Origin: Candidatus Zhuqueibacterota bacterium
Lineage (GTDB): Bacteria; Zhuqueibacterota; Zhuqueibacteria; Thermofontimicrobiales; Thermofontimicrobiaceae
Length of the DNA: 64,000 nucleotides
Direction: 5' to 3'
Assembly: GCA_049322915.1 (NCBI GenBank)
Contig: JBMOPW010000020.1
Coordinates: 160,001-224,000 of the forward strand
A program made the position numbers and the translations under genes. Below are positions 26,556-44,066 of this stretch, in pieces. Numbering within the stretch: the stretch's first letter is position 1; each line of letters opens with the position of its first letter. The notes beneath the pieces are model-generated. The model saw only the letters and a list, made by a program, of their open reading frames with translations. It did no database searches and was not told the origin of the DNA.

Positions 26556-27227
26556 CTACTTTGATTTTTTATGAATCATACCATCGACCAGGTGAATGGT
26601 GCGGTGGCCGTATGCTGCCCACTTTTCGTTATGCGTCACCTGAACGATCGTGGCGCCCTGTTCGTTCAGCTTTTTCAACATGTCCATTATCTCTTTGCCC
26701 TGGGCTGAATTCAAATTGCCGGTTGGCTCGTCCGCCAGTATCACTTTCGGATCTGTGATGATGGCGCGGGCGATACCGACAATCTGTTGCTGCCCGCCGG
26801 AGAGTTGATTGGGGAATAAATCCTTTTTGGCGACAATCTGAAATCGGTCGAGCGCGTCTGCCACCAGTGCTTTTCGTTCTGAAGCCGGCACCTTTTTATA
26901 GAGCAAGGGCGTTTCCAGATTTTCGTACACAGTCAAATCATCGATCAAATGGTATGCCTGAAAAATGAAACCGATGTTCTGCTGGAACAGTTGTGTCCGT
27001 TCACGTTCCTTGAGTTGAAAAACAGATTGATCCCCGAAAAAATATTCGCCGTCCGATGGTTCGTCCAGCATGCCGATGATATGCATCAGAGTGGATTTAC
27101 CGGCGCCCGATGGGCCCATGATGGTGATGAATTCGCCAGGATTAATTTCCATCGAGATATCCTGAAGCACATACGTTTTCACAAATCGGTTGGAGTAGTA
27201 TTTGAAAATATCATGCAGTCTAATCAT
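26556..27227 (-). CDS. ABC transporter ATP-binding protein (LolD/MacB-type)
   Basis: [26 protein letters not shown] and VTH; GAAAGGA RBS before ATG 27227. Confidence 0.95.
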
Positions 27228-27573
27228 GGACATTCCTTTCAATGGTAATGTAAGCATTATTTTTAGTTGAAATGGATTCGGATCGCAACGGCAGTTGACG
27301 GAATGGTCGAAGTACCGAAAGCAACGGCAACGAAATCCGGCTTTTCAATGATGAGATTTCTCTCTGCTGAATTCCGTTGGGCAGTAAGTCCCCGTTCGGA
27401 GTCGGATGCCGTAAAGCTTGTTTCTTTCCCAGTGATGCAGCTTGTCTATTTTTACATGCGCAGCGACCTTCTGCTCTGGAGCAACGATTCAATCGGATAA
27501 AAGGTCTTGGAATTTCCAAACTGCAATAATTCATATCTCAAACTCTTCATCCGCCAAAGGACAGATTTCATCA

Positions 27574-29919
27574 CTACTCACAACGCAGTGATTCCACTGG
27601 ATTCGCCAGCGCCGCTTTAATCGACTGATAGCTCACTGTTAAAAATGCGATCATTAATGCCAGCAATGCTGCTAAAACAAACATCCACCAATTGATTGCA
27701 ATTCGATACGCAAAATCATGGAGCCATTGATTCATAAAATAATAAGCCACTGGCCAGGCGATGAGATTGGCGATCAACACCCATTTGGCGAATTCTCTGG
27801 ACAGCAAAACCACAATTCCTGCGATGGATGCGCCCAGCACCTTCCTTACTCCAATCTCTTTGGTGCGTTGTTCCGCCATGAATGACGCCAGACCGAATAG
27901 TCCAAGACATGAGAGAAAGATCGCCAGCAGGGCAAAGGTACGGACGATGTTGGTGGTTCGGTCGATCCAATGGTACATTTGATCGTACGCCTCGTCCAGA
28001 AAATGGTATTCAAACGGATAATTCGGATTAAATTTAGTGACCACGTCTTTGATAAAAGTAATCGTCTGCGGAACGTCTGGCGCATTAATTTTCAGGTACA
28101 CGTAGCGATAAGGGCGAATGTCTGGATTATTGAAAATCATGATCGGCCCGATCTCTCCCTCGTGAACAGGCTTGAAATGAAAATCTTTGACGATCCCGAT
28201 AATTTCAAGCGAAATATCACCACGATAGATTCGATTGCCCGCTGCGGTTTCCACATTCATCATCTGAGCCAAACGCTCGTTAATGACGACGACCGCCTGA
28301 TTTTTTGATTCCTCAGTAAAAAAGCGACCGTTTGCCATGTCGATCTGGAAGGTCTTCAGAAAATCGGCATCGACCTGAAAATAGGTGATCAGTGGATTTA
28401 CGTTGGGATCTTTTTCCTGCCATTGCCAGTCCTGACCGTTCCAATAAATTCCTGTAATCGCATCCGAAGCAAGCGAAATACTCTGGATCGCTGGATTTTT
28501 TAATAATTCATTTTTCACCGTTTCATTATTTTCTCCCAGATTTCCTTCGACAGGGAGGGACAGGATTTGTTCTTTGTTCAATCCCAGGTTTTTATTGCGC
28601 ATAAAATGGACTTGATTGTAAACCACCGTCGTGGCTATGATGAGGATGATCGACAGCGTAAACTGCGTGACGACCAGTATCTTTCTGAATGAACTACCTT
28701 TCGAACTCGAAAATCGTAAACCTGTGAAAATCTGGACAGGTTGAAACGATGAAAGGAACAGCGCTGGATAGCTTCCTGATATGATTCCTGTGACAATGGC
28801 AATCCCCATGATTCCCATTAAAGCGGAGAGATTTTTCAAATAATGCAGCTCTAATGGTCGTTGCGTCATTTGTCGAAAAACAGGCAAGAAAAGCTCAACC
28901 AAAAAGATGGCAAGCGCCAGTGAAATAATAGTCAGCAAAATCGATTCGCCAAAGAATTGCCGCACCAGATGTTTTCGCTGGGCGCCGACGACCTTGCGCA
29001 AGCCCACTTCCTTTATTCGTCTGGCTGAGCGTGCCGTGGTGAGATTCATGAAATTGATGCAGGCGATAACCAGAACAAACAGGGCAATCACCCCGAAAAT
29101 TTTGACCTGATCCAGCCGTCCCCATAGCTTCAAATAAATATCTTTGAACGGGTAGAGGAACGGTTCCAATATGGTATTGGGATCGGATTGACGAATGCGA
29201 TTGGCGATTTTTTGGTTGAATTCCTGGTATGAGACATTTTCCGCCAGTTGAACGTACGTGCGAAACGCCAGGTTGTACCAGGTATCGAGATAATTGGGTC
29301 GATATATTTCCCTGGTAAAATCAATTGGTATCCAGATCGCAAAATCTATGGTTGAATTATACGGAATATCTTCAATCACACCAACCACCTTAAACTCATA
29401 CCGATTCTCCAATGTAACGATCTTGCCGATGGGATTCTCATTGCCAAAATATTTCTGCGCCGTCTTTTCGGCCATGACCAAAACATGCGGATCTGAGAAG
29501 GCGTCCTTTGAATTTCCTTTCACAAAAGGAATAGTAAAAATCTCAAAAACCGTCGGCTCAGCCAATTGGACTTCATCCTTGAATTTTTTATTTTCGTATT
29601 GAATGAGAAATTCATGCAGTCCATTATTGATTAACGCTGAATTGACTACTTCGGGGAATTCGGTTTTCAGTGTTCGTCCCAGAATGGGCGGTGTGCCCTG
29701 GCCTGGCATCCTTTCAGCTCCATATTGCTCCCAGCAGCGCATCAGGTAAATCGAATCGAGGTTTTTGTGCATCGAATTGAAGCTCAATTCATATTGAATC
29801 CATAGCATGATCAGAATGCAGCACGCCATGCCGATTGCAAGACCCAGAATGTTGATGAAAGAATAAGCTTTGTGGCGTCGGATGTTTCGCAAAGCGATTT
29901 TTAAGTAGTTTTTAAACAT
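27574..29919 (-). CDS. MacB/FtsX-type ABC permease, array member A
   Basis: MFKNYLKIALRN...INFMNL..AR...EVGLRKVVGA...EIGVRKVLGAS...ANPVESLRCE. Confidence 0.95.
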   Translation of the reverse strand: MFKNYLKIALRNIRRHKAYSFINILGLAIGMACCILIMLWIQYELSFNSMHKNLDSIYLMRCWEQYGAERMPGQGTPPILGRTLKTEFPEVVNSALINNGLHEFLIQYENKKFKDEVQLAEPTVFEIFTIPFVKGNSKDAFSDPHVLVMAEKTAQKYFGNENPIGKIVTLENRYEFKVVGVIEDIPYNSTIDFAIWIPIDFTREIYRPNYLDTWYNLAFRTYVQLAENVSYQEFNQKIANRIRQSDPNTILEPFLYPFKDIYLKLWGRLDQVKIFGVIALFVLVIACINFMNLTTARSARRIKEVGLRKVVGAQRKHLVRQFFGESILLTIISLALAIFLVELFLPVFRQMTQRPLELHYLKNLSALMGIMGIAIVTGIISGSYPALFLSSFQPVQIFTGLRFSSSKGSSFRKILVVTQFTLSIILIIATTVVYNQVHFMRNKNLGLNKEQILSLPVEGNLGENNETVKNELLKNPAIQSISLASDAITGIYWNGQDWQWQEKDPNVNPLITYFQVDADFLKTFQIDMANGRFFTEESKNQAVVVINERLAQMMNVETAAGNRIYRGDISLEIIGIVKDFHFKPVHEGEIGPIMIFNNPDIRPYRYVYLKINAPDVPQTITFIKDVVTKFNPNYPFEYHFLDEAYDQMYHWIDRTTNIVRTFALLAIFLSCLGLFGLASFMAEQRTKEIGVRKVLGASIAGIVVLLSREFAKWVLIANLIAWPVAYYFMNQWLHDFAYRIAINWWMFVLAALLALMIAFLTVSYQSIKAALANPVESLRCE

Positions 29920-29939
29920 TTCATTTTCTCCATTTTCCT

Positions 29940-29991
29940 GCAGAGCGCATAGCCTAAATTTACGCTATGCGCTCTGCGCCATGCTCTATGC
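29940..29991. repeat. Junction heptamer hairpin between permeases B and A
   Basis: gcagagc-gcatagc / gctatgc-gctctgc-gccatgc-tctatgc; perfect 14-bp stem. Confidence 0.85.
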
Positions 29992-29995
29992 ATTT

Positions 29996-32389
29996 TTACT
30001 CATACCGCAGCGATTCCACTGGATTCGCCAATGTAACTTTCAATGTTTGTGATGTAACAGCAACCAGCGCTGTACCGAACGAAATGAAAATCACAAATAG
30101 ATATGTCCCGACGCCAATCCCTTGCATGTACAACAATCCAGTCTGCAATACTTGATTCCATCCAAAATGGATGATTGATAAGCCAATGACGTTGGCAAGG
30201 ACGACCAGCATGATAAATTCCCTGATCATGGTCCAGGTTACACGGATCATGGAAGCGCCAAGCACCTTGCGAATGCAGATTTCTTTTGTCCTCTGTTCTA
30301 CCAGGTAAGATACCAATCCCAGCAATCCCAGGCAGGAGAAAAATACGGCAACGAATCCAATCAAACCGAAAAAACCAGAGATTTTATTCACAAGTCCCAA
30401 AACATCCTGGAAATAATCATCAATGGATGTGCAGTCAAAAGGCAGATCAGGGAAAAAAACCAGCCATTGTTCTTTCAAGAGATGTTCGATGTCCTTGAAA
30501 TCATGGGCAGCAGAGTATTTGACCAGAAGATAATTTAAATCTTCAGGCGCTAAATATAAAGCGGCAGGAGGAATTTCAAAACCAATATCGGCAAAGAGAA
30601 AATCCTTTGCCACCCCGATTACCATGCCAGCCCTGTCCCCAATTATTATCTGTTTGCCAATCGGATCTTCAATATTCAATCTTTTGACAGCACTTTCATT
30701 CAGGATAATGCTGTTAACATCCTTGTTTTCCCTTGAAAAGCTTCTGCCGTTGGTCAGCTTCATCTCAAGGGCTTCGATAAAATTGTAGTCAACGCCGTAA
30801 GCCTCAATTGTTTTGGCGTCTTGCTCATTTTGCTCTGGCAGCCTGGCACGTTTTGGCGATGACCATATTAAAGGGATGTTAGCTGAAGCCGAAACAAGAT
30901 TTATCCCTGCCTGACGGGTAATTTCTGTTTTGAGAGCTTCGAGCCTGGGGCGAGATTCATCGGAAAGCTTCACCACAGCCAATCGCTCTCGATTGTAACC
31001 AAAGTCAGCTTTTAGCAGGTGATCCAGTTGGCCTTTTAATAAGCTTGCAAAGGCAATCAAGATGATCGACAAAGTAAATTGGGTGACGATTAAAATTTTG
31101 CTGCCACGTCTTTTTTTCTTGCCTGTCTGCAAGCTGCCTTTGAGCACTGCCTGGGGTTGAAATTTGGACAAAAAGAATGCTGGATAGGCGCCTGAAAATA
31201 TGCCCACTAAAAATGATGTGCCAACAAGATATTTCAACAGGAACGGATAGTTCCAGATCGAGTTGGAGACCTTCGGCGTGTACATCGTCGCTGAAAGCTT
31301 TCCGACATAAGCCGTGTAAATCGGTTCGATTAATTCATAAAGTATCAGGGCGACGGGTAACGCAATCAGCGATAACAAAACCGATTCGCTAATAAATTGA
31401 ATGATCAACTGCGAGCGTCGAGCGCCGATGACTTTTCGTACACCAACCTCTTGAACCCGCTGCATATATCTGGCAGTTGACAGGTTTATGAAATTAATGC
31501 TGACGATCAGCAGCAGGATGATTCCAATGCCCAAAATGATTACAATACCTGCCCGATTGCTGCTGCTCAGGAAAGAAGTAATATGTTCCGAATCCAGCCG
31601 AAAACTTAGAAAGGGGAAAAGATACATTTTCTTTGGTGATTCAGGCGTGTCTCCCAGGTATTTCTTTATCAGCGACTGGAATTTAGCCTCAAACTGTACC
31701 CGATCAAATTCTTCAGAGAGCAGCACAAAAGTAGCCAGTTGATTTTGTTTCCAGTCATCGGTTAAATGGTATAATGATCGGGCGGTCTCCATCGAGATCA
31801 GAAAATCAAATCTCATGGATGAAGTTCGGGGCACATTCTGAACAACTCCTGTAACAGTAACATCGCTATTTTTTTCAAGCGTCAGCACCTTTCCAATTGG
31901 ATCATGATTGCCGAAATATTTTTCGGCGAAGGCTTTGGTCAAAACAATCGAATTGGGTCTTGCCAGCGCTGTTTGTGGATTCCCCGCAATCATTTCAAAT
32001 GTGAAAAACGACAGAAAATTCGAGTCAACGAACAGGATGTTGCTTTCATAAAAAGCATCGGCTTCCCGCTTGATCGTCATTTTATTCACAGGATAAATTC
32101 TCAAGCCAGCTTCGATTCCAGGAAATTCATTTTGCAACGCATGGAGGAGTGGCATTGGCGTAAAGGCAGTGTGTTCCTCTTTTTTATTTTCCGATTGGAG
32201 CACCTGAACGACGCTGAAAATTCTCGTGGCATTTTTATGGAATTTATCCGCATTCAGTTTTACTCCCGCAGTTAAAGCAAAGATAGCAAATCCTGTCATC
32301 CCGACCGCCATTCCCAAAATGTTGATGAGAGAATAGGCTTTTTGTTTTTTCAGATTTCGTAATGCGACAAGTAAATAATTTTTGAACAT
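29996..32389 (-). CDS. MacB/FtsX-type ABC permease, array member B
   Basis: AAGGAG RBS, MFKNYLLVALRN...ANPVESLRYE; same architecture as member A. Confidence 0.95.
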   Translation of the reverse strand: MFKNYLLVALRNLKKQKAYSLINILGMAVGMTGFAIFALTAGVKLNADKFHKNATRIFSVVQVLQSENKKEEHTAFTPMPLLHALQNEFPGIEAGLRIYPVNKMTIKREADAFYESNILFVDSNFLSFFTFEMIAGNPQTALARPNSIVLTKAFAEKYFGNHDPIGKVLTLEKNSDVTVTGVVQNVPRTSSMRFDFLISMETARSLYHLTDDWKQNQLATFVLLSEEFDRVQFEAKFQSLIKKYLGDTPESPKKMYLFPFLSFRLDSEHITSFLSSSNRAGIVIILGIGIILLLIVSINFINLSTARYMQRVQEVGVRKVIGARRSQLIIQFISESVLLSLIALPVALILYELIEPIYTAYVGKLSATMYTPKVSNSIWNYPFLLKYLVGTSFLVGIFSGAYPAFFLSKFQPQAVLKGSLQTGKKKRRGSKILIVTQFTLSIILIAFASLLKGQLDHLLKADFGYNRERLAVVKLSDESRPRLEALKTEITRQAGINLVSASANIPLIWSSPKRARLPEQNEQDAKTIEAYGVDYNFIEALEMKLTNGRSFSRENKDVNSIILNESAVKRLNIEDPIGKQIIIGDRAGMVIGVAKDFLFADIGFEIPPAALYLAPEDLNYLLVKYSAAHDFKDIEHLLKEQWLVFFPDLPFDCTSIDDYFQDVLGLVNKISGFFGLIGFVAVFFSCLGLLGLVSYLVEQRTKEICIRKVLGASMIRVTWTMIREFIMLVVLANVIGLSIIHFGWNQVLQTGLLYMQGIGVGTYLFVIFISFGTALVAVTSQTLKVTLANPVESLRYE

Positions 32390-32406
32390 GATTTTCTCCT
32401 TCTCGT

Positions 32407-32563
32407 GCATAGCGCAGAGCGTTATACGTGGGACGAGAGACGGCAGACGTGAGACGAAAAAGTTGGCGTCTCACATTTCACGTTTGACGTTTCACGCAAA
32501 TTACGCTATGCGCTTATTCGTATCTCTAACTCTCCATCCGCCAAAGGACGGATTTCATCACTA
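32407..32563. repeat. Junction module between permeases C and B (nested heptamer hairpins + 47-nt terminal duplication)
   Basis: gcatagc-gcagagc-gttata-(cgtgaga-type)x4 ... (cgtttca-type)x4-gctatgc, then TTATTCGTATCTCTAACTCTCCATCCGCCAAAGGACGGATTTCATCACTA. Confidence 0.9.
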
Positions 32564-34987
32564 CTCACATCGCAAGGATTCAACTGGATTTGCCAGCGCT
32601 GCTTTAATCGATTGATAACTCACCGTAATCACTGCAATAATGAGCGCTAAAGTTCCTGCCAATAAAAATGTCCACCAGCTAATATGAATCCGATAAGCGA
32701 AGTTTTGTAACCATCGATTTACGGCAAAATAGGCAATTGGCCAGGCGATTATGTTTGAAATAAGAATCCATTTGACAAAATCTCGATTTAGCCACTGAAT
32801 GATATTTATAACCGAAGCACCAAGTACTTTACGGATGCCTATTTCTTTGGTGCGCTGCTTTGCAATAAATAGAGCCAAACCAAATAATCCAAGGCTGGCA
32901 ATAAACAATCCCATGATGGTAATAATACTTAATAATCGACTCACTTGCTCTTCAAACCGATATTGTCGATCGAAATCTTCATCGAGAAAAATTCCTTCAT
33001 ACGGGATCGATGGATGTAATTCACTCCATTTCGATTCGATGAATTTTAAAGTTTTATTTAAATTTTTAGTATTTAAAGACAATGTGATCACATTGAACAA
33101 AGATGGCTCATATTCCATAAAAAGGGGTTCTACAGTACTTTGCATTCCCTGATAATGAAAATTTTTTGTCACACCGACGATTTCCTTCTGGGTGAAGCCA
33201 CTATATATTTTCTTCCCAATCGCTTCTTCCGGTGAGCTCCAGCCGAGCAGTCCGACGGCAGCTTCATTAATAAGAAAGGCATTTTTCTCGTCATTTTGTT
33301 CTTTCAGGAAGGGGCGCCCAGCAACAAGCTCGATACCATATTCAGGGATAAAATCATGATCTACAGCCATATATTTCAAATCAAAAGGCTTTACCAAAAT
33401 ATCATTGCTAAAGCTTAATGAGTTATGAAGAACAGAACGCCCAGGGACGCTCGAAGATACGGTTGTACCAACAATCGCATGGTATTTATCGAATTCACTT
33501 TTCAACACTGTGTAATGGTCGCATACTTTTTTATTCATCCGAAACGGAATGACAAGTTTCTGCTCTTTGTTAAATCCCAACGATTGACTCTTCATAAAAT
33601 GAAGTTGGTTATAGATTGTGATCGTGCTTATGGTTAATAATATCGAAATCGCAAATTGTCCGATAACAAGTACCTTCAGGAGAAAAGTCCCACGTGAGTT
33701 GGTTACAGTTGATCCTTGAATCATAAGCGATGGTTTGAAGGCAGTCAAAATAAAAGCAGGATAACCGCCAGCAACAATACTGATAAATAATAAAAGACCC
33801 ACCAGCGCGAGAAGTACTGTCGGCTGAAAGAGTCCTCTGTGGGATAATTCAGTGCCAGCCATCTCGTTAAATAGGGGTAATAATATTTCTAACAACAGAA
33901 ATGCGAAAATCAATGCCAGGATGGTGATGATTATGGACTCACCCAAAAACTGCTTGATCAATTGAAATCGTTTGGCGCCGACAACCTTGCGCAAACCAAC
34001 TTCTTTGGTTCGATAAACCGACCGCACATTGGAAAGGTTTATGTAATTCATACAGCCAATTAATAAAATCAAAAATCCTATTACCGAATAAATGTATAGA
34101 TAAAGCTTGTTTCCTGGCGGTTCTATTTCATACCTCAGATTCGAATTGTAATGAATATCGAGTAACGGCTGCAAAAAATAGGTCCGTGTTTGTCCCCATA
34201 GGTCTAACTGTTTTTTGACATACTTGTAGGCAAGTCCACTGATTGACTCTTTGAATTCATTCACATTAGTGTTCGATCTGATCTTAACATACGTATACGC
34301 CGCACTGGAATGCCATTCTCGCAACAGAAAACCCCCTTCGTGTGTTTTCAAGGAGAGAAGTAAATCATATTTAAAATGAGAGTTTGAACGAGAGTTCTCG
34401 ATCACTCCAGTTACTATATAATCACAGACAGCAGGGAACGGCGCATAAAATCCACGAAATTCATAAATTGGATCTTTAATCTGGATTGTTTTACCGATTG
34501 GATTTTCATCTCCAAAATATTTCTTTGCCATATTTGTAGTCATCACGACCGTTCTTGGATTTTCTAATGCTGTTTCCGAATCACCTTGGATAAACGGCAT
34601 TGTAAATATTTTAAATATTTCCTGATCAACGTAGAACATTCGTTCCTCATAAAACGCCTTGTTTTCGTACCTGACAAATCCATCATTTAGTTGTAGGATT
34701 CTGGCTGCATGCTCAACCTGTGGGAAATCACTTTTCAGGACTGTCGCCACAACAGGACTGATTCGAGCAAATTTGAACTCGCCCAACGGAACCTTTCTAT
34801 ATTCGGCAATGCGATAAATTCTCACTGCGTCTTTATTGAATCGATCATACGACGATTCACTGGCGACATAAAGAAATATCACCATGCAGCAGGCGATTCC
34901 TATTGCCAGTCCTGCGATATTGATGGCAGAATATGTTTTATGCTTTTTAATATTTCGAAGAGTGATTTTCAAATAATTCTCTAGCAT
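32561..34987 (-). CDS. MacB/FtsX-type ABC permease, array member C (AT-rich)
   Basis: MLENYLKITLRN...ANPVESLRCE. Confidence 0.95.
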   Translation of the reverse strand: MLENYLKITLRNIKKHKTYSAINIAGLAIGIACCMVIFLYVASESSYDRFNKDAVRIYRIAEYRKVPLGEFKFARISPVVATVLKSDFPQVEHAARILQLNDGFVRYENKAFYEERMFYVDQEIFKIFTMPFIQGDSETALENPRTVVMTTNMAKKYFGDENPIGKTIQIKDPIYEFRGFYAPFPAVCDYIVTGVIENSRSNSHFKYDLLLSLKTHEGGFLLREWHSSAAYTYVKIRSNTNVNEFKESISGLAYKYVKKQLDLWGQTRTYFLQPLLDIHYNSNLRYEIEPPGNKLYLYIYSVIGFLILLIGCMNYINLSNVRSVYRTKEVGLRKVVGAKRFQLIKQFLGESIIITILALIFAFLLLEILLPLFNEMAGTELSHRGLFQPTVLLALVGLLLFISIVAGGYPAFILTAFKPSLMIQGSTVTNSRGTFLLKVLVIGQFAISILLTISTITIYNQLHFMKSQSLGFNKEQKLVIPFRMNKKVCDHYTVLKSEFDKYHAIVGTTVSSSVPGRSVLHNSLSFSNDILVKPFDLKYMAVDHDFIPEYGIELVAGRPFLKEQNDEKNAFLINEAAVGLLGWSSPEEAIGKKIYSGFTQKEIVGVTKNFHYQGMQSTVEPLFMEYEPSLFNVITLSLNTKNLNKTLKFIESKWSELHPSIPYEGIFLDEDFDRQYRFEEQVSRLLSIITIMGLFIASLGLFGLALFIAKQRTKEIGIRKVLGASVINIIQWLNRDFVKWILISNIIAWPIAYFAVNRWLQNFAYRIHISWWTFLLAGTLALIIAVITVSYQSIKAALANPVESLRCE

Positions 34988-35009
34988 GATTCATTTCCTT
35001 TGATTTTCC

Positions 35010-35076
35010 GCTTAGCGCAAAGAGCATGGCGCATCGCATCCTTTTCGCCATGCCCTTTGCTTTATACACCATACGC
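35010..35076. repeat. Junction heptamer hairpin between permeases D and C
   Basis: gcttagc-gcaaaga-gcatggc-gcatcgc / gccatgc-cctttgc-tttatac-accatac. Confidence 0.75.
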
Positions 35077-37476
35077 TTATTCGTATCTCAAACTCTTCAC
35101 TGGATTCGCCAGTGCCGCTTTAATCGAATGATAGCTGACTGTCAACAAAGCAATGAGCAAAGTTGCCGATCCAGCCACCACAAATGTCCACCATTCCAGG
35201 TTGATCCGATACGTGAAATTTTGCAGCCATTGCGTCAGGCAGTAATAGGCAACGGGCCAGGCGATGATGTTGGCAATCAACACCCATCTGGTGAAATTCC
35301 AGGTTAACGATGATACGATACCTGGGACGGATGCGCCGAGCACTTTTCGGATGCCGATCTCTTTGGTTCGCCGCTCGGCGGTAAAAGTGGCTAAACCGAA
35401 TATGCCGAGGCATGCGATAAAAATAGCCAATATGTTTGAATACATCAGAATCTGTCCCAGCTTCTGTTCCGATTGATACATCTGATTGAATTGATCATCG
35501 AGAAAAAAATGCTGAAAAGGATATCGAACCTTGAAGCGATTATACAGGCTCTCTATTTTTGCCAGTGTCTCATGGAAATTGCCTGGGATCATTCGGATCT
35601 GAATCCAATATGAATTGGGTCGGCATCGAATAATGACGGGTTTGATATTGAAATGTAACGGACGGGCATGGAAATCTTTCACCACGCCGATAATATTGTA
35701 TCTGGCATCCTGAGGGCCGCTCCATACCTGGGGTACCTGTTTGCCAATCGGATTGGCCCAGCCTATTTGTTTCACAAAGGTTTCATTCACGATCAGGGCT
35801 GTAGCTGAATCGCTACCAAACGCTTTTGAAAAATTCCGACCCTGCACCATACGCATCTTAAACAGATCGATGAAATTATAATCGACTTCGAGAAGCTGGT
35901 AATGCACCAGTTTATTTTCCCCATTGTCTTTTTGGAATTCGATCCCAGTTGCCCAATTAATGTTAGTGGGTAGCTCGCTTGAAGTCGTGACATCGACGAC
36001 TTTGGGAATTTGCAGCAGATCATTTTTGAATGCTTCAAAATTATTGGTGATTTCCGAATCCGCCTGTCGCAGCACTAAAATCTGTTCCCTCCTGAATCCC
36101 AGGTCTTTGTGTTTGATATAACCAATCTGCCGGTATATTACGAGTGAAGCAATCATCAAAACGATTGCGATGCTGAATTGGAACAAAACCAGAAAATTCC
36201 TGAGATTCATGCCTTTTTTTTGATCCGTATTTTTTGACCTTAAAATTATCACGGGCTTCATCGAAGACAGAACGATTGAAGGATAAATACCAGAGATCAG
36301 ACCCGTGGCGATGACAACGGCAATTAATCCGAGAATCTCAGTTTTATTTAGAAAGAAACTCCAGTCAATCGTTCGCTGAATGAATTGATTGAACACTGGC
36401 AGCAGCATGGTTACCAGCGTAATTGCAGCAACAAATGCCAGTACTGACATGAATAGCGATTCTCCTGTAAACTGCCCGAACAATTGGTGACGCATTGAGC
36501 CGACCACTTTTCGAACCCCGATTTCTTTGGCTCGCTTCGAGGCATTTGCTGTCGACAAATTCACGGCATTGATGCAGGCGATCAATAGGACAAATATGGC
36601 AACGACGGTGAATAGTCGAATCAAATAGATGTCCGTGGGCGCGCCGAGTTCATAGCGATAGCCTGATGTGAGATGAACCTGGTGCAGCGGCTGCAGAAAA
36701 TAGTTGAAATTCAATCGGAATTCCCAATCACCATATTTTGTTTTGGTAAAGTCATTGAGTTTTTTTTCAAACGCCCTGGCATCGCATCCAGGCTGCAATT
36801 TAATGAAGGAGTAGTAATTATCCCAATTCCAGGCATTCAATCGCCTGTCACGATCATCAGGCTGAAACTGACTTTCGAAGGGGAGAATCCAATCAAATTG
36901 AATGTTGGAATTTTCAGGCGCATTCTCGGCAATGCCAGCGACCGTAAAATCACCGAGCGAACATGTCAGCGTTTTTCCTAATGGATCGTCGTTGCCGAAA
37001 AGTTTTTGCACCAGCCGTTGGCTGATAATGATGTTTTGCAGGTTATCCAGAATTTTCTCTTTGTCACCTTTGATCAGCTTGAAAGAAAAAATATTGAAAA
37101 AATTTTTATCAGCCAATACGCCCGCTTCAAAGAAATGCATTTCATCTCGGGACAGCAATAGCTGATTAAAGGAGCTGAATCGGGTGGCAGATTCAACTTC
37201 AGGGAACGCTTCCATCAGCGCCGCAGCCAGTGGCGCAGGTGTAATTGCCAGCATGTCCTCCGTCGTTCCAAATTTTTCACCTGGCAATTGAAAAATAATG
37301 CGAAAAATGCGATTGGAGTGCTGGTGGAAATTATCGTAGCTAAGTTCGTATTGCACGAACAGCATAATGAGCATAAAGCAGGTCATTCCAATCACCAGTC
37401 CTGCAATATTAATGAACGAATATCCCTTATTTCTCTGGATATTTCGAAGGATTAATTTCAGGTAGTTATTGAACAT
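35077..37476 (-). CDS. MacB/FtsX-type ABC permease, array member D
   Basis: MFNNYLKLILRN...ANPVKSLRYE. Confidence 0.95.
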   Translation of the reverse strand: MFNNYLKLILRNIQRNKGYSFINIAGLVIGMTCFMLIMLFVQYELSYDNFHQHSNRIFRIIFQLPGEKFGTTEDMLAITPAPLAAALMEAFPEVESATRFSSFNQLLLSRDEMHFFEAGVLADKNFFNIFSFKLIKGDKEKILDNLQNIIISQRLVQKLFGNDDPLGKTLTCSLGDFTVAGIAENAPENSNIQFDWILPFESQFQPDDRDRRLNAWNWDNYYSFIKLQPGCDARAFEKKLNDFTKTKYGDWEFRLNFNYFLQPLHQVHLTSGYRYELGAPTDIYLIRLFTVVAIFVLLIACINAVNLSTANASKRAKEIGVRKVVGSMRHQLFGQFTGESLFMSVLAFVAAITLVTMLLPVFNQFIQRTIDWSFFLNKTEILGLIAVVIATGLISGIYPSIVLSSMKPVIILRSKNTDQKKGMNLRNFLVLFQFSIAIVLMIASLVIYRQIGYIKHKDLGFRREQILVLRQADSEITNNFEAFKNDLLQIPKVVDVTTSSELPTNINWATGIEFQKDNGENKLVHYQLLEVDYNFIDLFKMRMVQGRNFSKAFGSDSATALIVNETFVKQIGWANPIGKQVPQVWSGPQDARYNIIGVVKDFHARPLHFNIKPVIIRCRPNSYWIQIRMIPGNFHETLAKIESLYNRFKVRYPFQHFFLDDQFNQMYQSEQKLGQILMYSNILAIFIACLGIFGLATFTAERRTKEIGIRKVLGASVPGIVSSLTWNFTRWVLIANIIAWPVAYYCLTQWLQNFTYRINLEWWTFVVAGSATLLIALLTVSYHSIKAALANPVKSLRYE

Positions 37477-37495
37477 TTTTTTTCTCCGCTTTTTT

Positions 37496-37652
37496 GCATA
37501 TCGCAGAGCGTTATACGTGAGACGAAAGACGAAAGAATTTAGCGTCTCGCATCTCTCGTTTGACGTTTCACAAGTTTCACGCTATGCCCTTTGCACCCCA
37601 CGCTATTCGTACCTCCAACTTTCCATCCGCCAAAGGACGGATTTCATCACTA
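37496..37652. repeat. Junction module between permeases E and D
   Basis: Near-copy of 32407-32563. Confidence 0.9.
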
Positions 37653-40013
37653 CTCACAATGCAAGGATTCAACTGGATTTGTCACTGCCGCTTTGATTGC
37701 TTGATAACTCACCGTAAAAATTGAGATCACCAGCACCACCATCGCTGACAGCACAAAAGGCTCCCATCCCAGATTGATTCGATAGGAAAAGCCTTGCAGC
37801 CATTGGCTCGCTGCCCAATACGCCACAGGCCAGGAGATAATGTTGGCAATAAGTACCCACAGGGTAAATTCTCCGGACAGCAGCAGAACGATGCCCGCAA
37901 CCTTTGCGCCCAATACTTTGCGGATGCCGATCTCTTTGGTGCGTCGTCCCGCCATGAACGACGCCAGTCCGAACAGCCCCAGGCAAGCGATGAAGATAGC
38001 CAGCCCTGAGAAATAGCCAAAAATTTTTCCGATCTTACGTTCGGTCGTGTATAAATTTTCAATTGATTCGTCAAGGAATTGGTATCGAAATGGATGTCCG
38101 GGAACGAACTTTTTCCACTTTTGCTCTAAATAACTGACGATCCCTTGTTCGCTGCCACTGTATTTAACGCAGACGAAGAAACCGTTGCGCAAGCTAATAA
38201 CTTTTGGCTGGATGAAATTCCGCAGCGAGCCGCCATGATAGTCCTTCACCACACCGATGATCGTGCCCGTTTTCCCATTGATCGTCAGGCGCTTGCCGAT
38301 CGGCTCATTCAAATCCATTCTTTTGATGGCCGATTCATTCAGAACAAAATTGGCGTCATCGCTGATGAACTCCCGTGAATAAAATCGACCTGCTGCCATT
38401 TTTAAACCAAAGGTTTTTAAAAAATCATAGTCGCCCAAATCGGAAAAAAGCATGATTTCTCTGGTCGGATCTTTGCCTTCCCACTGGACTTGTGTCGTTC
38501 CGCCAAAACCAGGCCCAGGTGGAAATGCCTGGCTCACGCTGAGAATATTTGGATTTTGGAGCAACTCATTTTTGGCGGCTTCGAAATTCATGCCGTATTG
38601 ACCATACGAGGCAAATGAAATGATATTATTCTGGTCAAAGCCCAAATCTTTATTCTGAATAAAATGAAGCTGCCAATAAATAACCGCAGTCAGGATGATC
38701 AGTGTGATGGTGATCGAGAACTGGCTGACCACGAGCACCTTCCGCAGGGCGCCGCCTTTGCCAGCGCTGAATTGAGCCATGGCTCTAAAAACGCCCGCAG
38801 GCTGAAATGATGATAAATAGAGAGCAGGGTAACTGCCTGAAACAATACCTGTTAATATGACAATCCCTAACAAGACGAACAATGAACTCAAATTTTTCGT
38901 CGGGTCGAGCGAAAGCTGCTTGCTGGCAAGCGAGTTAAAAGTCGGCAGTAGAATTTCCACAAGAATGATGCTTACAAATAGCGCTAAAAATGATAACAGT
39001 AAGGTTTCACCCAGAAACTGGATGATGATATCCCGCCGCTGGGCGCCAGTCACTTTGCGGATGCCGATTTCTTTCGCTCGTGCGCCGGAGCGGGCGGTCG
39101 AAAGGTTGGTGAAATTGATGCAGGCTAATGCCAGGATCAAGATGGCGACGATAGAAAAAATGTAAATATACGTGATATTACCTGGATTGGGGTAGACAAT
39201 GTTCCAGCTATTCAGGTGCATCGAATGTAAATGAACTGATTTTAACGGCTGGAGGTCGAGGGTGATTTTGGAATCGGGAATATTTTTGATGACCATGCCC
39301 GCCATTTTTTGTTTGAGATCATTCAGATCGATATTTTTTTTGGTCAGGATATAGGTCGTAAACTGAGTGTATGTCCAGCTATCCAGCTTGGATTCCCGCC
39401 ATTCGGTCATGTTGATGACAGGGAAGATGTAGTCGAACTGGAGATGGGAATTGTGCGGAATATCTTTCATGACTCCTGTGACCTTCAAATCCGTATCCGA
39501 CATCTGAACGATTTTCCCCATTGGCTCGTCATCGCCAAATATTTTTTTCGCTAACCTTTCGGTGAGCACAATTGAATAGCGATCGTGTAAAGCCGTTTTG
39601 GGATCGCCTTTGAGAAATGGAAATTGAAATATTTCAAAGAAAGAAGGATCGGCGCAGGCCAGCTTTTCGGTTATAAAAATTTTGTCGCCCAGATGAAGAT
39701 ACCAGTTCGACCAGCCTGATTGGACTCGAGTGAAATTTTCAACTTCGGGATATTCTTCAACCAGTGTAGGACCAATGAGTGAAGGTGATCCAACCGAGCG
39801 AATTAAATTGCCGCCCGACCTGTCTTCGGAAATGACCCGAAAAATGTGATCGTTATTTTTGTGGAATCGATCCCAACTCAATTCATCTTGCACCCACAGC
39901 AGGATGAGCGTACAGACGGCCATGCCAATAGCCAGTCCGATGACATTCAAGAACGAATAGCCTTTATAGCGTTTGATGTTTCGCAGTGCAATTGTCAAAT
40001 AATTTTTGAACAT
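37650..40013 (-). CDS. MacB/FtsX-type ABC permease, array member E
   Basis: AAGGAG RBS, MFKNYLTIALRN...TNPVESLHCE. Confidence 0.95.
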   Translation of the reverse strand: MFKNYLTIALRNIKRYKGYSFLNVIGLAIGMAVCTLILLWVQDELSWDRFHKNNDHIFRVISEDRSGGNLIRSVGSPSLIGPTLVEEYPEVENFTRVQSGWSNWYLHLGDKIFITEKLACADPSFFEIFQFPFLKGDPKTALHDRYSIVLTERLAKKIFGDDEPMGKIVQMSDTDLKVTGVMKDIPHNSHLQFDYIFPVINMTEWRESKLDSWTYTQFTTYILTKKNIDLNDLKQKMAGMVIKNIPDSKITLDLQPLKSVHLHSMHLNSWNIVYPNPGNITYIYIFSIVAILILALACINFTNLSTARSGARAKEIGIRKVTGAQRRDIIIQFLGETLLLSFLALFVSIILVEILLPTFNSLASKQLSLDPTKNLSSLFVLLGIVILTGIVSGSYPALYLSSFQPAGVFRAMAQFSAGKGGALRKVLVVSQFSITITLIILTAVIYWQLHFIQNKDLGFDQNNIISFASYGQYGMNFEAAKNELLQNPNILSVSQAFPPGPGFGGTTQVQWEGKDPTREIMLFSDLGDYDFLKTFGLKMAAGRFYSREFISDDANFVLNESAIKRMDLNEPIGKRLTINGKTGTIIGVVKDYHGGSLRNFIQPKVISLRNGFFVCVKYSGSEQGIVSYLEQKWKKFVPGHPFRYQFLDESIENLYTTERKIGKIFGYFSGLAIFIACLGLFGLASFMAGRRTKEIGIRKVLGAKVAGIVLLLSGEFTLWVLIANIISWPVAYWAASQWLQGFSYRINLGWEPFVLSAMVVLVISIFTVSYQAIKAAVTNPVESLHCE

Positions 40014-40030
40014 GATTTTCTCCTTAGCTT

Positions 40031-40213
40031 GCGTGGGGGAACGCATGGCGCAGAGCGTTATACGTGAGACGTGAGACGAAAGACGCGAGACGAAAGAATT
40101 TAGCGTCGCACATCTCTCCTTTGACGTTTAACAAGATTCACGCAATGCCCTTTGCACCCCCCTCTATTCGTACTTCCAACTCTCCATCCGCCAAAGGACG
40201 GATTTCATCACTA
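40031..40213. repeat. Junction module between permeases F and E
   Basis: Near-copy of 32407-32563 and 37496-37652, with five cgtgaga-type units in the left inner arm. Confidence 0.9.
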
Positions 40214-42601
40214 CTCACAACGCAAGGATTCAACTGGATTTGCCAGGGCAGCGCGGATTGTCTGGAAACCGGATGTCGCCAGGGCGAATGCAAGTTCAAA
40301 TGCCACCGCCAGCATGAACAGCCACCAGTTGACCTGAGTTCGATAGGCAAAATGATTCAACCAGTAATGCATGAGGCAGAATGAGAAAGGAATAGCAAGC
40401 GCGCTGGCGCCTAAAATCCAGATGATGAACTGGCGGGAAATGAGAAACGTGATGCCGAATGCGCTTGCGCCCATCACTTTTCGGATGCCGATTTCTTTCG
40501 TACGGTTTTTTGTCACGAACGAGCTGAGACCGTAAAGCCCCAGACAGGAGACGAACAGAGCCAATCCGGTAAAAATGGATAAGAGTTCCCCCGACTTTTC
40601 TTCGACGCGGTAGAGGCGCGAATAGACATCCTCTAAGAAGCGATGATTTAAGGCATACCCGGGCAGGACGCTGGTCCAAACCTCTCTCACGTGCGAAATT
40701 GTCTCCGGTATTTTGTCAGGATTCAGTCTCATTGCAACTACAATGGTCTTCCGGGTATCGATCAAAATGAGCGCGGGATTGATTTTCTTGTGAAACGATT
40801 GAATGTGAAAATCCCGCACAATGCCGATCACACTGACAGCATCGCTCCGGCCCGGAATGTGAAGCAGAGCCCCGACAGGATGAGCCAGTCCCAATGCGCG
40901 CACAGCCGATTCATTCAAAATGACGCTGCCCATAGCATCCGTGGAGATTTCGCGCGAGAAATTCCTTCCCTCAATGAACGCCAGCTTCATGGTTTCGGCA
41001 AATCCAAAGTCAGCGGGCAGCGCTTGCAGATTCACCGAGTTTTCGGCCGGGCTGCCGGCTTTTGTGACGGAGATGTTGAAGCGGCTGTTGATGCCGGGCA
41101 AGGTGTACGCGCTGGAAACACCGAGTACATTCGGATTTTTCAATAACTCGTCGCGAAGCACTGAGTACTTTCCTGCTGCGGCGTCGTCATTGAGCGGGAA
41201 ATTGAGGAGCAGCACATTGTTCTTGTCGAATCCAAGTCCGGCGTTCTTCATATAGTTCAGTTGCTTGTAAATAATCGCCGTCCCCAGGATGAGAGTCAGG
41301 GTCAACGCAAACTGCAGGACGACGATGAATTTTCGAAGATTGAGCTTATGAGTGAGGCCCAGTCGCCGTTTCTTCAGAATGTCCACGGGCCGGAATCTGG
41401 ATAAAAACAGCGCCGGGTACCCGCCGGCAATGAGACTCACTGTGACGATCAGTCCGATGATGAGGATGCTGAATTGCAGCTTGAGCGTCGGTCCCATGTA
41501 AAAATCGGTTCCCACGAAGTCGTAAAATAGTGGCCGCAGTAATTCGAAAATGACAAATCCAACGGCGATGGCGAAGAGCGTAATGAGGAACGATTCGATC
41601 AAAAGCTGATGAATGAGCTGCGGGCGGCTTGCGCCGACGACTTTGCGAATGCCGATTTCCCGGGCGCGGTTCAAATAGCGCGACGTGGATAGGTTGATAA
41701 AATTGAAGCAGGCAATGATGAGAACGAAGAAAGCAGCGGCTAAAAATATTGTCACATACATTTTGTTACCTTTGGGCCCGAGGTCGTAGTTGGAGCGCAT
41801 ATCCCAGTGAATTTCCGAAAGCGGCAGCGGTATGAATTTCATGCGCAAAGCGAACCAGTCATTGGTATTCTCCTTCAGCATGTCCGCCAGCCTGCTCATG
41901 ACCGGCCCAATGGTTGCTCTCTCTTTCAACAGTAAGTAGGTGAAATCATCGCCCCATTGATCCCAGGGCGCAGCACTGACTTTGCCGCTCGCCGCAAATG
42001 TGGCGTAGGAAATGATGAACTGGCAGTTGAGATGGGTGTTGCGCGGGAAATCCCGCATGACGCCGGTGATTTTTAAAGGGGAGTCCTGATAGACTAACGT
42101 GCGGCCAACAGGATTTTCGGCGCCGAAATATTTCCGAGCCTGCGATTCGGTCATGACCAGGGAAAACGGTTCGGAGAGGGCATTTGCCGTATCGCCCTGG
42201 ATGAGATCAAACGTGAAGATGTCGAAAATCCCTGGCTCAGCGAGAAAGACATAGTCCTCGCGGATGGATTCGTCATTCGGCCTCGTGAAAATAGCGTCGT
42301 AATCTCGGCGAATGCGAATGGCGCGTTCGACTTCAGGCGACTGCGTATTCAGAGCCGGGGCGAGTGCGGGCATGGAGCCGGCGAAAATCATTTTGCTCTC
42401 CGGCGTGCCCCACTCCAGCATGATGCGATAGATGCGGCTTTTTTTCTCATGGAAATTCTCAAAGCTGGTCTCGTACATGACGTAGGTCAGCATCACCATG
42501 CAAACAGCCAGCCCAACGGCGAGACCGAGGATATTGATTGCTGAGAATCCCTTGTTCCGGCCGACATTGCGGAACGCGATTTTGATATAGTTCTTTAACA
42601 T
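40211..42601 (-). CDS. MacB/FtsX-type ABC permease, array member F (GC-rich)
   Basis: MLKNYIKIAFRN...ANPVESLRCE. Confidence 0.95.
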   Translation of the reverse strand: MLKNYIKIAFRNVGRNKGFSAINILGLAVGLAVCMVMLTYVMYETSFENFHEKKSRIYRIMLEWGTPESKMIFAGSMPALAPALNTQSPEVERAIRIRRDYDAIFTRPNDESIREDYVFLAEPGIFDIFTFDLIQGDTANALSEPFSLVMTESQARKYFGAENPVGRTLVYQDSPLKITGVMRDFPRNTHLNCQFIISYATFAASGKVSAAPWDQWGDDFTYLLLKERATIGPVMSRLADMLKENTNDWFALRMKFIPLPLSEIHWDMRSNYDLGPKGNKMYVTIFLAAAFFVLIIACFNFINLSTSRYLNRAREIGIRKVVGASRPQLIHQLLIESFLITLFAIAVGFVIFELLRPLFYDFVGTDFYMGPTLKLQFSILIIGLIVTVSLIAGGYPALFLSRFRPVDILKKRRLGLTHKLNLRKFIVVLQFALTLTLILGTAIIYKQLNYMKNAGLGFDKNNVLLLNFPLNDDAAAGKYSVLRDELLKNPNVLGVSSAYTLPGINSRFNISVTKAGSPAENSVNLQALPADFGFAETMKLAFIEGRNFSREISTDAMGSVILNESAVRALGLAHPVGALLHIPGRSDAVSVIGIVRDFHIQSFHKKINPALILIDTRKTIVVAMRLNPDKIPETISHVREVWTSVLPGYALNHRFLEDVYSRLYRVEEKSGELLSIFTGLALFVSCLGLYGLSSFVTKNRTKEIGIRKVMGASAFGITFLISRQFIIWILGASALAIPFSFCLMHYWLNHFAYRTQVNWWLFMLAVAFELAFALATSGFQTIRAALANPVESLRCE

Positions 42602-42865: not shown

Positions 42866-43555
42866 TTACACCCGGAATCTCTCCTTGACATTTTCCGTGA
42901 CCACCTGGCCGTCGAACAGATGAATGATGCGATGGCAATATTCAGCATAGGCCGGCGAGTGGGTGACCATGATGATCGTCGTGCCGTTCTCGTGCAGGTC
43001 GGACAACAGTTTCATCACCTCATCCCCGTGAGCTGAATCCAGGTTGCCAGTCGGCTCGTCCGCCAAAATGAGCCGGGGTTGAGCGACTACAGCTCGTCCC
43101 ACGGCGACGCGCTGCTGCTGCCCGCCGGAGAGCTGCTGTGGGAAATGATTTTTCCGATGCATCATCTGCATCTGCTCCATCACTTCATTGACGCGCGTTT
43201 TTCGTTCGGCTGACGAATAGCCCAGATACAGCAGCGGAAGTTCAATGTTTTCGAACACCGTCAATTCATCGATTAAATTAAAACTCTGAAAGACAAATCC
43301 GATATTGGCTTTTCGCAGATTCGCCCGCTGCCGTTCAGAATACCGGGATACCTCCTGGTCCAGAAAGTAGTACTCGCCGTCGTTGGGATTGTCCAGCAGC
43401 CCCAGCAGGTTGAGCAGCGTGGACTTCCCGCATCCGGACGGTCCCATGATGGCCACAAACTCTCCCTGCGTGATTTCGATGTTCACGTTATTCAGAGCAG
43501 TCGTTTCCACTTCCTCGGTCATGTAGATTTTTTTGAGATTTTTGGTTTTTATCAT
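42866..43555 (-). CDS. ABC transporter ATP-binding protein (LolD/MacB-type)
   Basis: [29 protein letters not shown] and VTH. Confidence 0.96.
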   Translation of the reverse strand: MIKTKNLKKIYMTEEVETTALNNVNIEITQGEFVAIMGPSGCGKSTLLNLLGLLDNPNDGEYYFLDQEVSRYSERQRANLRKANIGFVFQSFNLIDELTVFENIELPLLYLGYSSAERKTRVNEVMEQMQMMHRKNHFPQQLSGGQQQRVAVGRAVVAQPRLILADEPTGNLDSAHGDEVMKLLSDLHENGTTIIMVTHSPAYAEYCHRIIHLFDGQVVTENVKERFRV

Positions 43556-43621
43556 TGGTTTGTTCTCCGACTTATTGATCCTTCATTATTCTCCTGTATG
43601 GATAGAGATGTTTTAGGTTTT

Positions 43622-44066
43622 AAGATGCGTTCAGCGTTCAGCGTTCAGCGGTCAGCCTTCTGCCTTTAGCTTTTGTATCAATCCAGCCAACATTTTTTTT
43701 ACTTCTTCAATTTCATTCAACAATTTTATATACGTGTTTTCATCGAGATAATGTAAATCGTAGGCTAAAAGTGTCTGGTATTCAAGTTCACTCGCTGATC
43801 CCATTGCAATTTGCAGGAAGCGAGCAAAATCAAGGTCGCTGTTTCGTCCACAACCTTCAGCAATATTTGATGGGATAGAAATACTGGATCTACGGATTTG
43901 GCTCGTCAATCCATAGATTTCCTCTTTTGGAAATGCACGAGTGTTTTTATAAATTTGCAAGGTTAGCTCATGGCTTTTCTGCCATACATTCAACTTCCTA
44001 AAATCTTTCATTTTAATTCCTCCTGTTTTTATCTGATTGCTAATTGCTGAAAGCTGATAGCTATTT
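43622..44066. mobile_element. Four-helix-bundle gene unit bounded by inverted heptamer-repeat arms
   Basis: Left arm (gttcagc)x3-ggtcagc-cttctgc-ctttagc (43629-43670); right arm tctgatt-gctaatt-gctgaaa-gctgata-gctattt (44032-44066). Confidence 0.7.
43652..44011 (-). CDS. Four helix bundle protein (23S rRNA IVS protein / Avd-like family)
   Basis: FRKLNVWQKS, FPKEEIYGLTSQIRRS..SIPSNIAEG.GR and FLQIAMGSASE; GGAGG RBS; AT-rich relative to its neighbours. Confidence 0.95.
   Translation of the reverse strand: MKDFRKLNVWQKSHELTLQIYKNTRAFPKEEIYGLTSQIRRSSISIPSNIAEGCGRNSDLDFARFLQIAMGSASELEYQTLLAYDLHYLDENTYIKLLNEIEEVKKMLAGLIQKLKAEG

Follow-up and report, generated by a model that had tools for sequence, protein, structure and literature searches.

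A tandem array of MacB/FtsX-type permeases in a Zhuqueibacterota bacterium, probably reshaped through shared gene ends and heptad-repeat junctions

Introduction

How can a single operon hold six strongly divergent permease genes while the junctions between several of these genes look like copies of one another? This question is raised by a locus in the window, i.e. the whole stretch of 64,000 nt of contig JBMOPW010000020.1 (assembly GCA_049322915.1, a Candidatus Zhuqueibacterota bacterium) that was analysed. Six open reading frames (ORFs) of 781–808 amino acids (aa) lie there head to tail on the minus strand at 27574–42601; they are named permeases A to F, where F is the first and A the last of the array, and a junction is named after the genes it connects (F>E to B>A). 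Tandem arrays of such permeases, which resemble the ADOP family, are common in Bacteroidota and Acidobacteriota and are, to our knowledge, still unexplained. The original prediction, derived from the letters of this stretch, took the array for an integron-like, modular exporter repertoire in which permeases are gained, lost or swapped through their junctions, with homologous recombination as the default mechanism, since no integrase was seen in the window.

The array was compared with the remainder of its own 6.25-Mb genome, with related genomes (here G001, of the same genus, G005, G006, G007, G010 and G011), with metagenome loci and with public contigs. We regard it, with a probability of roughly 0.6, as a dynamic array that homologous recombination and gene conversion have remodelled, and in which the junctions are local repeat DNA.

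Results

Six old paralogues with related junctions

All six permeases matched the MacB_PCD and FtsX models above the cut-offs, FtsX in two stretches in each of them and MacB_PCD in two stretches in five, and by these domains they are type VII ABC (ATP-binding cassette) permeases of the MacB/FtsX type. The match to the ADOP model TIGR03434 covered most of the length in all six and the full length in five, but with scores of 246–306 bits it stayed far short of the cut-off (622.3); the permeases share the architecture of that family without being members of it. Pairwise aa identity among A–F is 28–45%, and the third codon position at identical residues agrees in 0.37–0.52 of cases in bins of the gene bodies, compared with 0.65 in the last 15 codons. 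Synonymous sites between the six bodies are therefore saturated, and the permeases are old paralogues, which agrees with the strong divergence that had been predicted for them. The predicted contrast in base composition was likewise found, with a GC content of 38.6% in C and 51.7% in F; among 1925 long ORFs of the same genome A–E rank in the 3rd–12th percentile and F in the 53rd, and permease loci of relatives have 37–46% GC. Chimeric bodies were not detected in a quarter-by-quarter comparison of best matches, which agreed in all four quarters of C and F and in those three quarters of D and E that their truncated orthologues cover.

The junctions C>B, E>D and F>E are 73–86% identical over about 170–200 nt. 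Their repeats are real, although the longest exact runs they have in common measure 37–42 nt and the earlier wording ‘near-identical’ was too strong. When the E>D spacer was compared with the own genome, it matched F>E (85–86%, E = 6.9e-49), C>B (73–76%, E = 5.2e-26) and the first 45 nt after A (84–87%), and nothing else in the 6.25 Mb. A 173-nt junction unit was also considered as a genome-wide element of the repetitive extragenic palindromic (REP) type and rejected, as it occurs in four places, all within the array. The identical 29-mer that had been noted for B and E has exactly two occurrences (32373 and 39997); it carries a GGAG motif and extends over the ribosome-binding site (RBS) and codons one to five, which puts the probable starts of B and E at 32389 and 40013. 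Both would then begin at MFKNYL, as the other four genes do, and the ORF list over-extends them by 7 and 11 codons, respectively.

With the gene ends aligned in register, the long junctions display one and the same order after the codons for Asn-Pro-Val: a block of 47 nt, a relic of 21 nt, a long hairpin and a GGAG-type RBS. The first 21 nt of the block encode Glu-Ser-Leu-Arg/His-Cys-Glu-stop (in F>E they are the final codons of F) and are followed by two further stop codons and a small inverted repeat, so that the block stands in for the final seven codons of the gene upstream of it. The relic is a decayed, untranslated version of Glu/Lys-Ser-Leu-Arg-Tyr-Glu-stop, i.e. the displaced original gene end. 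The arms of the hairpin consist of outer GCAnnGn heptads and inner GnnARAY heptads. Block and relic are present after A, C, E and F; D is without the block and the relic-type sequence forms its actual end, and B has a different type of gene end. The short, near-perfect hairpins of B>A and D>C belong to the outer heptad family only. Along A, C, E and F identity rises from 0.49–0.69 to 0.83–0.97 in the interval from 29 nt before the stop codon to 45 nt after it, and block plus relic are 83–97% alike across the four copies and about 80–84% alike in the copy of G010. In C>B the coordinates of block and relic were set by the alignment register, as the pattern search missed this copy by one base.

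Two further roles of the block were considered and dropped: translational bypass or read-through, in view of three in-frame stops after the gene and a stop inside one relic copy, and an RNA element formed by the small hairpin after the stop codon, as neither this hairpin nor the block folds significantly (z = -0.8 and -0.2). No family reached its threshold in an Rfam scan; the best match was Gut-1 with 27 bits against 50 (E = 0.14) at 27528–27599 on the minus strand, over block and relic after A. This sub-threshold match was reported for the copy after A and not for the other three.

A derived block copied from junction to junction

The orthologue of E in G011 (88% aa identity) ends in the sequence that forms the relic behind E (17 of 21 nt) and has no 47-nt block. 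The same applies to the F relatives of G006 and G005, whose ends are relic-type sequence without a block, and the block is also missing from four further E orthologues (64–79% identity), which come from four of seven metagenome loci; the remaining three loci (L041–L043, 34–37% identity) lie outside this comparison. An exact-pattern scan over one genome each of 185,579 species returned the block in one other record, that of G010, where it follows a permease of the syntenic operon. Because the orthologues of E and F end elsewhere with the relic sequence and without the block, this comparison marks the block as a derived insertion that spread within the array.

A composite scar of block plus relic is unlikely to have arisen four times independently and must have been copied between the junctions of paralogues that are otherwise saturated. 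The hairpins tell the same story: their inverted arms fold strongly in B>A, C>B and D>C and weakly in F>E and E>D (z values in Table 1), and the latter two form the most alike pair. E>D and F>E are thus copies of a hairpin that had already decayed, which argues for copying and against selection on structure.

Heptad hairpins as a repeat class

Tandem arrays of at least three copies were counted in the own genome, and 162 of them had a period of 7 nt, as compared with 32 for period 8, 77 for period 5 and 55 for period 9. An inverted partner within 2.5 kb was found for 41 of the 162 heptad arrays and for 5 of 162 after the array letters had been shuffled. The inner heptad pattern occurs in 15 places of this genome, four of them in the permease array, and the two occurrences of the outer pattern both fall within that array. 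Among relatives, the outer pattern is abundant in G006 (72 places), G011 (42) and G007 (35), where it is dispersed among numerous contigs, and it is absent from G001 and G010, whereas its reversed control gave 0–2 matches per genome. GCAnnGn- and GnnARAY-type units occur throughout the five permease–permease junctions. With their tandem 7-nt arms, their inverted arrangement and their many copies in relatives, the junction hairpins belong to the class of heptad-repeat hairpins known from short tandemly repeated repetitive (STRR) sequences and intervening sequences (IVS). Repeats of a family found throughout the genomes of relatives do not fit the earlier idea of integron-like junction sites.

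The loops of junction hairpins in relatives enclose genes on the opposite strand, namely AAA_14/DUF4143 in G007, AbiEii in G010 and Uma2 in G011; these are genes of selfish or defence type (L014:1873-3183, L011:7552-8253 and L003:1604-2197, respectively). Heptad arrays of 11–21 units with various 7-mers also occur elsewhere in the own genome, e.g. at C14:704978-705123, C14:748703-748778 and C2:124743-124826, and inverted heptads unlike those of the junctions form the arms around a PF05635 gene of the operon. In public run X2, which represents a related strain from another habitat and consists of contigs of 224–330 nt at low depth, length differences of 14 nt (two heptads) were seen in B>A (29944) and F>E (39771-40105), in one contig each; the insertion in B>A has a depth of 4.8 and carries little weight. 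Runs X3 and X4 contained next to none of the stretch.

Array content among relatives

Permeases of this kind are present in 15 of 31 genomes, the own genome included, and several of these have long tandem arrays. At the syntenic locus the own genome has six permeases between two ATPase genes, whereas G001 and G010 have the adaptor, a PF05635 gene, ATPase 1, ATPase 2 and then two permeases; the identity of the G001 pair to any of A–F does not exceed 37% for one and 43% for the other. The two ATPase genes are adjacent in G011 too, and one contig of that genome shows the order A'-X-Y-D', with X and Y orthologous to neither B nor C. In a quick tree calculated from 54 sequences (limited to ORFs of 550 aa or more and thus without the A' fragments of G011; support by the Shimodaira–Hasegawa-like approximate likelihood ratio test, SH-aLRT), D and E paired with genes of G011, C with a gene of G007 and F with the genes that open the arrays of G006 and G005, and B stood alone.

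Orthologues of E were found in five different neighbourhoods: F-E-D in the own genome; a permease, E' and then unrelated genes in G011; ATPase 2, E and a permease 35% identical to C in L037; no permease after E in L038; and a 43%-identical permease after E in L040. Downstream of the orthologues in G011, L037, L038 and L040 (74–88% identity) stand four different sequences, none of them with the 47-nt block, so the junction does not travel with its gene. Content and order of the array hence differ in every relative examined, as expected if permeases are gained and lost. At the syntenic locus of G006 (L016, G006:C180, 12339-15368) the adaptor and ATPase genes are absent and a Uma2-like ORF and small ORFs stand in their place; the ORF of the sigma-54 regulator lacks its N-terminal part there.

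Exchange between genera and its boundaries

When third codon positions at identical residues were compared with G011, identity was 0.78 for D, 0.75 for E and 0.70–0.73 for two fragments of A, as against 0.43–0.52 in all five other genes compared (ATPase 1, ATPase 2, a sugar ABC ATPase, a beta-helix protein and AraA); the same measure towards the congeneric G001 gave 0.46–0.59 in seven of seven genes. A, D and E are thus young relative to the genomes that carry them, and the difference between 0.70–0.78 and 0.43–0.52 points to their lateral exchange with another genus. On the G011 contig that carries E', two neighbouring genes find their best matches in the own genome at only 40% and 49% aa identity and on other contigs, so that mis-binning does not explain E.

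Sliding identity located the boundaries of the exchanged segments. On the 5' side the similarity of D and A to their G011 orthologues sets in about 20–50 nt upstream of the ATG, inside the junction; on the 3' side identity drops from 0.93 to 0.60 about 250–290 nt before the stop codon of E and falls about 180 nt before that of A. The tails of E, E' and the metagenome orthologues are 73–80% alike, the level of an older divergence. As the boundaries lie just upstream of the RBS and 180–290 nt before the stop, the mobile unit would roughly be the RBS plus the body, and the conserved tail and the junction would stay with their slot, as far as three gene pairs from fragmented bins can tell. The prediction of swaps through the junctions therefore holds in part: arrays are unstable, A, D and E were apparently exchanged, junction modules were copied and the 5' boundaries do lie in the junction, but the 3' boundaries lie 180–290 nt inside the genes. 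In comparison with E and a metagenome orthologue, E' of G011 (L044, G011:C624, ~1998-2000) lacks 56 nt and its frame is broken, which could mark a pseudogene or an error of the assembly.

Operon layout and partner genes

The surroundings of the array correspond to the original prediction, with one adaptor gene, two bracketing ATPase genes (51% identical to each other) and a divergently oriented sigma-54 two-component system (Table 1). Three sigma-54-type sites were found window-wide, where 4.85 were expected by chance, and the one upstream of the adaptor gene, which alone is sensibly placed, is a candidate promoter. The junctions contained neither sigma-54 promoter-like nor terminator-like sites, so that a single transcript of about 19 kb would be the simplest reading. 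Between the adaptor gene and ATPase 1 a PF05635 gene of differing sequence occupies the same position in G001 and G010. Neither the array nor the adjoining DNA contains a transposase gene; the spacers beside the ATPase genes (316 and 264 nt) hold no gene remnants (blastx E no better than 0.07), and no outer-membrane factor of the OEP/TolC family was found among the 17 other ORFs of at least 250 aa in the window. A sorting domain of the type IX secretion system (T9SS) is present among the proteins of the window, a feature consistent with Bacteroidota.

Table 1. Features of the permease array and its surroundings, in the order of the operon (positions in the window)
Feature	Position	Strand	Remarks
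Histidine kinase	47019-48353	+	divergent from operon; HATPase_c
Sigma-54 response regulator	45566-47029	+	divergent from operon; Sigma54_activat 3.3e-67, Response_reg, HTH_8
Sigma-54-type promoter-like site	45395-45409	-	one mismatch to TGGCAC-N5-TTGC; 84-98 nt upstream of adaptor gene, opposite sigma-54 regulator gene
Periplasmic adaptor (HlyD/RND_mfp type)	44061-45311	-	first gene of operon; HlyD_3; TIGR01730 120 bits, cut-off 94.9
Inserted cassette with PF05635 gene (43652-44011)	43551-44060	-	inverted 7-nt repeat arms 44043-44057 and 43629-43656
ABC ATPase 1	42866-43555	-	ABC_tran 4.2e-35; 91% identical to G001 orthologue
Permease F	40211-42601	-	GC genome-typical; orthologue-like genes first in G006 and G005 arrays
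Junction F>E	40014-40231	-	block 40185-40231, relic 40164-40184, two-tier heptad hairpin ~40040-40165, RBS; fold z -2.3
Permease E	37650-40013	-	ORF list to 40046, likely start 40013; G011 orthologue 88% aa
Junction E>D	37477-37670	-	block 37624-37670, relic 37603-37623, two-tier heptad hairpin ~37490-37605; fold z -1.7
Permease D	35077-37476	-	original un-inserted gene-end type; G011 orthologue 85-87% aa
Junction D>C	34988-35076	-	15-bp-stem hairpin, outer heptad family, 35017-35060; fold z -4.7
Permease C	32561-34987	-	most AT-rich; 3rd GC percentile of long ORFs
Junction C>B	32390-32581	-	block 32535-32581, relic 32514-32534, two-tier heptad hairpin ~32405-32516; fold z -6.4
Permease B	29996-32389	-	ORF list to 32410, likely start 32389; long-branch orphan
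Junction B>A	29920-29995	-	perfect 14-bp hairpin, outer heptad family, 29940-29977; fold z -6.5
Permease A	27574-29919	-	last of array; G011 fragments 83-84% aa identical
Fourth block + relic, after A	27527-27594	-	block 27548-27594, relic 27527-27547; then unique 270-nt spacer
ABC ATPase 2	26556-27257	-	final gene of operon; in G001, G010 and G011 directly after ATPase 1

Discussion

The operon is probably sigma-54 dependent and would supply one adaptor, two ATPases and six alternative fused-dimer permeases of the MacB/FtsX type (ADOP-like). Each permease would pair with the shared ATPases and adaptor, and the resulting pumps would differ in their periplasmic domains and hence presumably in their substrates. 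The junctions are not recombination sites of a dedicated system but local repeat DNA in three layers. One layer is the two-family heptad hairpin; elements of this kind fill intergenic spacers across the lineage and in their full form enclose small selfish genes. Another is the 47-nt block, inserted in frame ahead of a permease's final seven codons, which supplies the gene with a near-identical new end and three stops, and the third is the displaced old end, the relic. Block, relic and hairpin spread among the junctions of the array by copying, presumably through gene conversion and at a time when the genes had long diverged. The conserved gene ends and the junction repeats are the sole stretches alike enough for homologous recombination, through which whole permease bodies may have been lost, gained, reordered and exchanged between related genera. 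As no integrase was found in the genome, homologous recombination is the default mechanism, as had been suggested, and the likely means of these changes.

Several points weigh against this explanation. Exact runs of 37–42 nt and a likeness of 73–86% are poor substrates for RecA-type exchange, and boundaries near gene ends may partly reflect survivorship, because rearrangements that break genes are removed by selection. Recombination at the junctions was not seen directly, and public contigs (contigs, not reads) held no credible joined variants; the candidates that turned up, with sides of 20–42 nt and a likeness of 85%, look like paralogue cross-mapping and were given no weight. Block and relic, 83–97% alike without a significant fold, could owe this likeness to a sequence-specific function instead of recent copying, and the outer heptad family, limited to the array in its own genome, could have a special tie to it. 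Moreover, the comparison genomes are fragmented metagenome bins (G011 with 730 contigs, 85% completeness and 5% contamination), in which mis-binning could mimic lateral transfer, although the neighbours of E' argue otherwise for E; the deletion of 56 nt in E' and the overlapping frames of D' could each be an assembly error or mark a pseudogene. The quick tree has SH-aLRT support only, and 27 of its 51 inner branches are unresolved.

Alternative explanations

A possible, though clearly less probable, explanation is a cassette system without a recombinase, in which bodies (from the RBS to ~200–290 nt before the stop) are slotted between genera into a resident scaffold of tail and heptad hairpin; the scaffold would be kept alike by gene conversion as portable homology, and the block would be the footprint of one swap. 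Were this true, heptad hairpins would have a role in transporter diversity beyond that of selfish or neutral repeats. It is unlikely that the junctions are instead kept alike by selection as RNA elements, be it as hairpins for RNase III/E-type processing or stabilising in the 19-kb transcript or as translation control of the next permease. Such a function would suit a hairpin that stands just upstream of a GGAG-type RBS in every permease–permease junction, here and in relatives, the three of five hairpins that fold far better than shuffles, and the conservation of the block between two genera; intervening sequences of the same architecture in 23S rRNA are, moreover, removed by RNase III. Yet the four unrelated sequences downstream of the E orthologues would reduce any function to that of a generic hairpin and not of this sequence, the two most alike copies fold worst, and the block lacks a significant fold. 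The absence of an Rfam family at threshold and of terminator-like sites in the junctions also speaks against it. Independent colonisation by a hairpin element resembling a miniature inverted-repeat transposable element (MITE), with a preference for permease 3' ends and with recent transposition as the source of the likeness, is quite unlikely. The hairpin family is indeed scattered over many contigs in G006, G007 and G011, full-length relatives of such hairpins carry selfish genes, the duplicated gene end superficially resembles a target duplication, and heptad-unit indels in the related strain of run X2 would fit, for what one contig is worth. The 21-nt ‘duplication’ is, however, recoded and not copied, as it has other codons for Ser, Arg and stop, and its length is well beyond that of ordinary target duplications; within the own genome the combination of block, relic and hairpin is restricted to the array, a transposase is missing from the array and its flanks, and identity reaches 29 nt into the coding sequence.

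Very little speaks for an integron-like array, in which a permease and its downstream palindrome would form a cassette moved by a recombinase encoded elsewhere. Uniform gene orientation, an imperfect palindrome of 40–130 nt after each gene and variable content among relatives recall such arrays, but the 6.25-Mb genome has no IntI: the best match to TIGR02249 (C20:99064-99870, ~87 kb from the array) reaches 79 bits against a cut-off of 265, and sub-threshold matches in a comparable range occur in all 14 control genomes. An attC site has an inverse core RYYYAAC and a core GTTRRRY around an imperfect palindrome; this pair was found in none of the six junctions, where a lone RYYYAAC in the spacer after A and a lone GTTRRRY in F>E were the only motifs. 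In addition, junctions separate from their genes, 3' segment boundaries lie inside genes, and the members are paralogues of one family with shared partner proteins. The integron analogy of the original prediction fails on these grounds. It is just as improbable that junction likeness or gene order is an artefact of assembling a repeat-rich metagenome bin. The Logan contigs listed for run X1 do end exactly at three block copies, and none of them bridges these copies, so that the order of 32540–37651 and of 37630–40207 rests on the original assembly. Each long hairpin lies, however, inside a separate X1 contig without any difference, the four segments having depths of 52–68 (X1 may be the source sample and thus no independent confirmation); the copies differ from one another by 14–27%, the same architecture recurs in G010 and partly in G011, and exact repeats of 37–42 nt are shorter than ordinary reads.

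If the array has indeed been reshaped by recombination and gene conversion, one adaptor and one pair of ATPases can presumably support a set of permeases that changes over time. The exchange of array members between genera outpaces the divergence of the genomes, and the mappable boundaries of the exchanged pieces offer a picture of how an exporter repertoire may diversify. Bacterial 7-nt repeats gain a testable consequence, as they may act as homology patches or conversion tracts within a gene family, and presence or absence of the block in orthologues is a natural experiment for measuring gene conversion in an uncultured lineage.

Comparison with known systems

We found nothing in the literature on the junction anatomy, the block, mapped exchange boundaries or reshuffling of such permease arrays. 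Already in print are tandem ADOP-like clusters on acquired DNA, represented by a cluster of ten ADOP-family paralogues in genomic island 43 of Psychroflexus torquis, which belongs to the Bacteroidota (PMC3914696). In the passages of that paper concerned with the cluster, its genes are described as paralogues in tandem, about 800 aa long and with a pair of MacB-type periplasmic domains plus FtsX units apiece; they adjoin further transporter components, the DNA is considered to have been acquired horizontally, and a function in efflux is presumed. These passages give no account of junction repeats or of exchange between genera (PMC3914696). Unlike the P. torquis cluster, the permeases of the present array reach only 246–306 bits with TIGR03434 (cut-off 622) and form one operon with an adaptor, a pair of ATPases and a sigma-54 two-component system.

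Integron cassette arrays are similar in their co-oriented genes, each with an imperfect palindrome, and in content that varies between relatives. They differ in that the present locus has no integrase and no attC cores, its palindromes do not move with the genes, its members are paralogues in need of shared partners, and its boundaries lie partly in genes.

Heptanucleotide repeats are known as STRR sequences of heterocystous cyanobacteria, and there are intervening sequences of 23S rRNA that carry a PF05635 gene. The junction hairpins share with these elements the tandem intergenic 7-nt units and the inverted, paired arms, and the full form that encloses a PF05635 gene is represented here by the cassette between the adaptor gene and ATPase 1. 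Further heptamer repeats were described from Xanthomonas and Nostoc (PMC4692102), and TAACTGA repeats from Beggiatoaceae (PMC4679880), in the parts of these papers that deal with them. In contrast to the known bacterial heptad repeats, two heptad families are nested here and joined to a 47-nt end block, and the composite is limited to one array within its own genome.

Among the type VII ABC systems covered in the relevant part of a review (PMC5985334), MacAB-TolC and LolCDE resemble the present operon in the MacB-type periplasmic domain, the FtsX fold, a separate or shared nucleotide-binding protein (LolD) and an adaptor (MacA). The operon described here differs from both in its permeases, which are fused pseudo-dimers, in its two distinct ATPases and in the six alternative permeases that stand beside a single adaptor.

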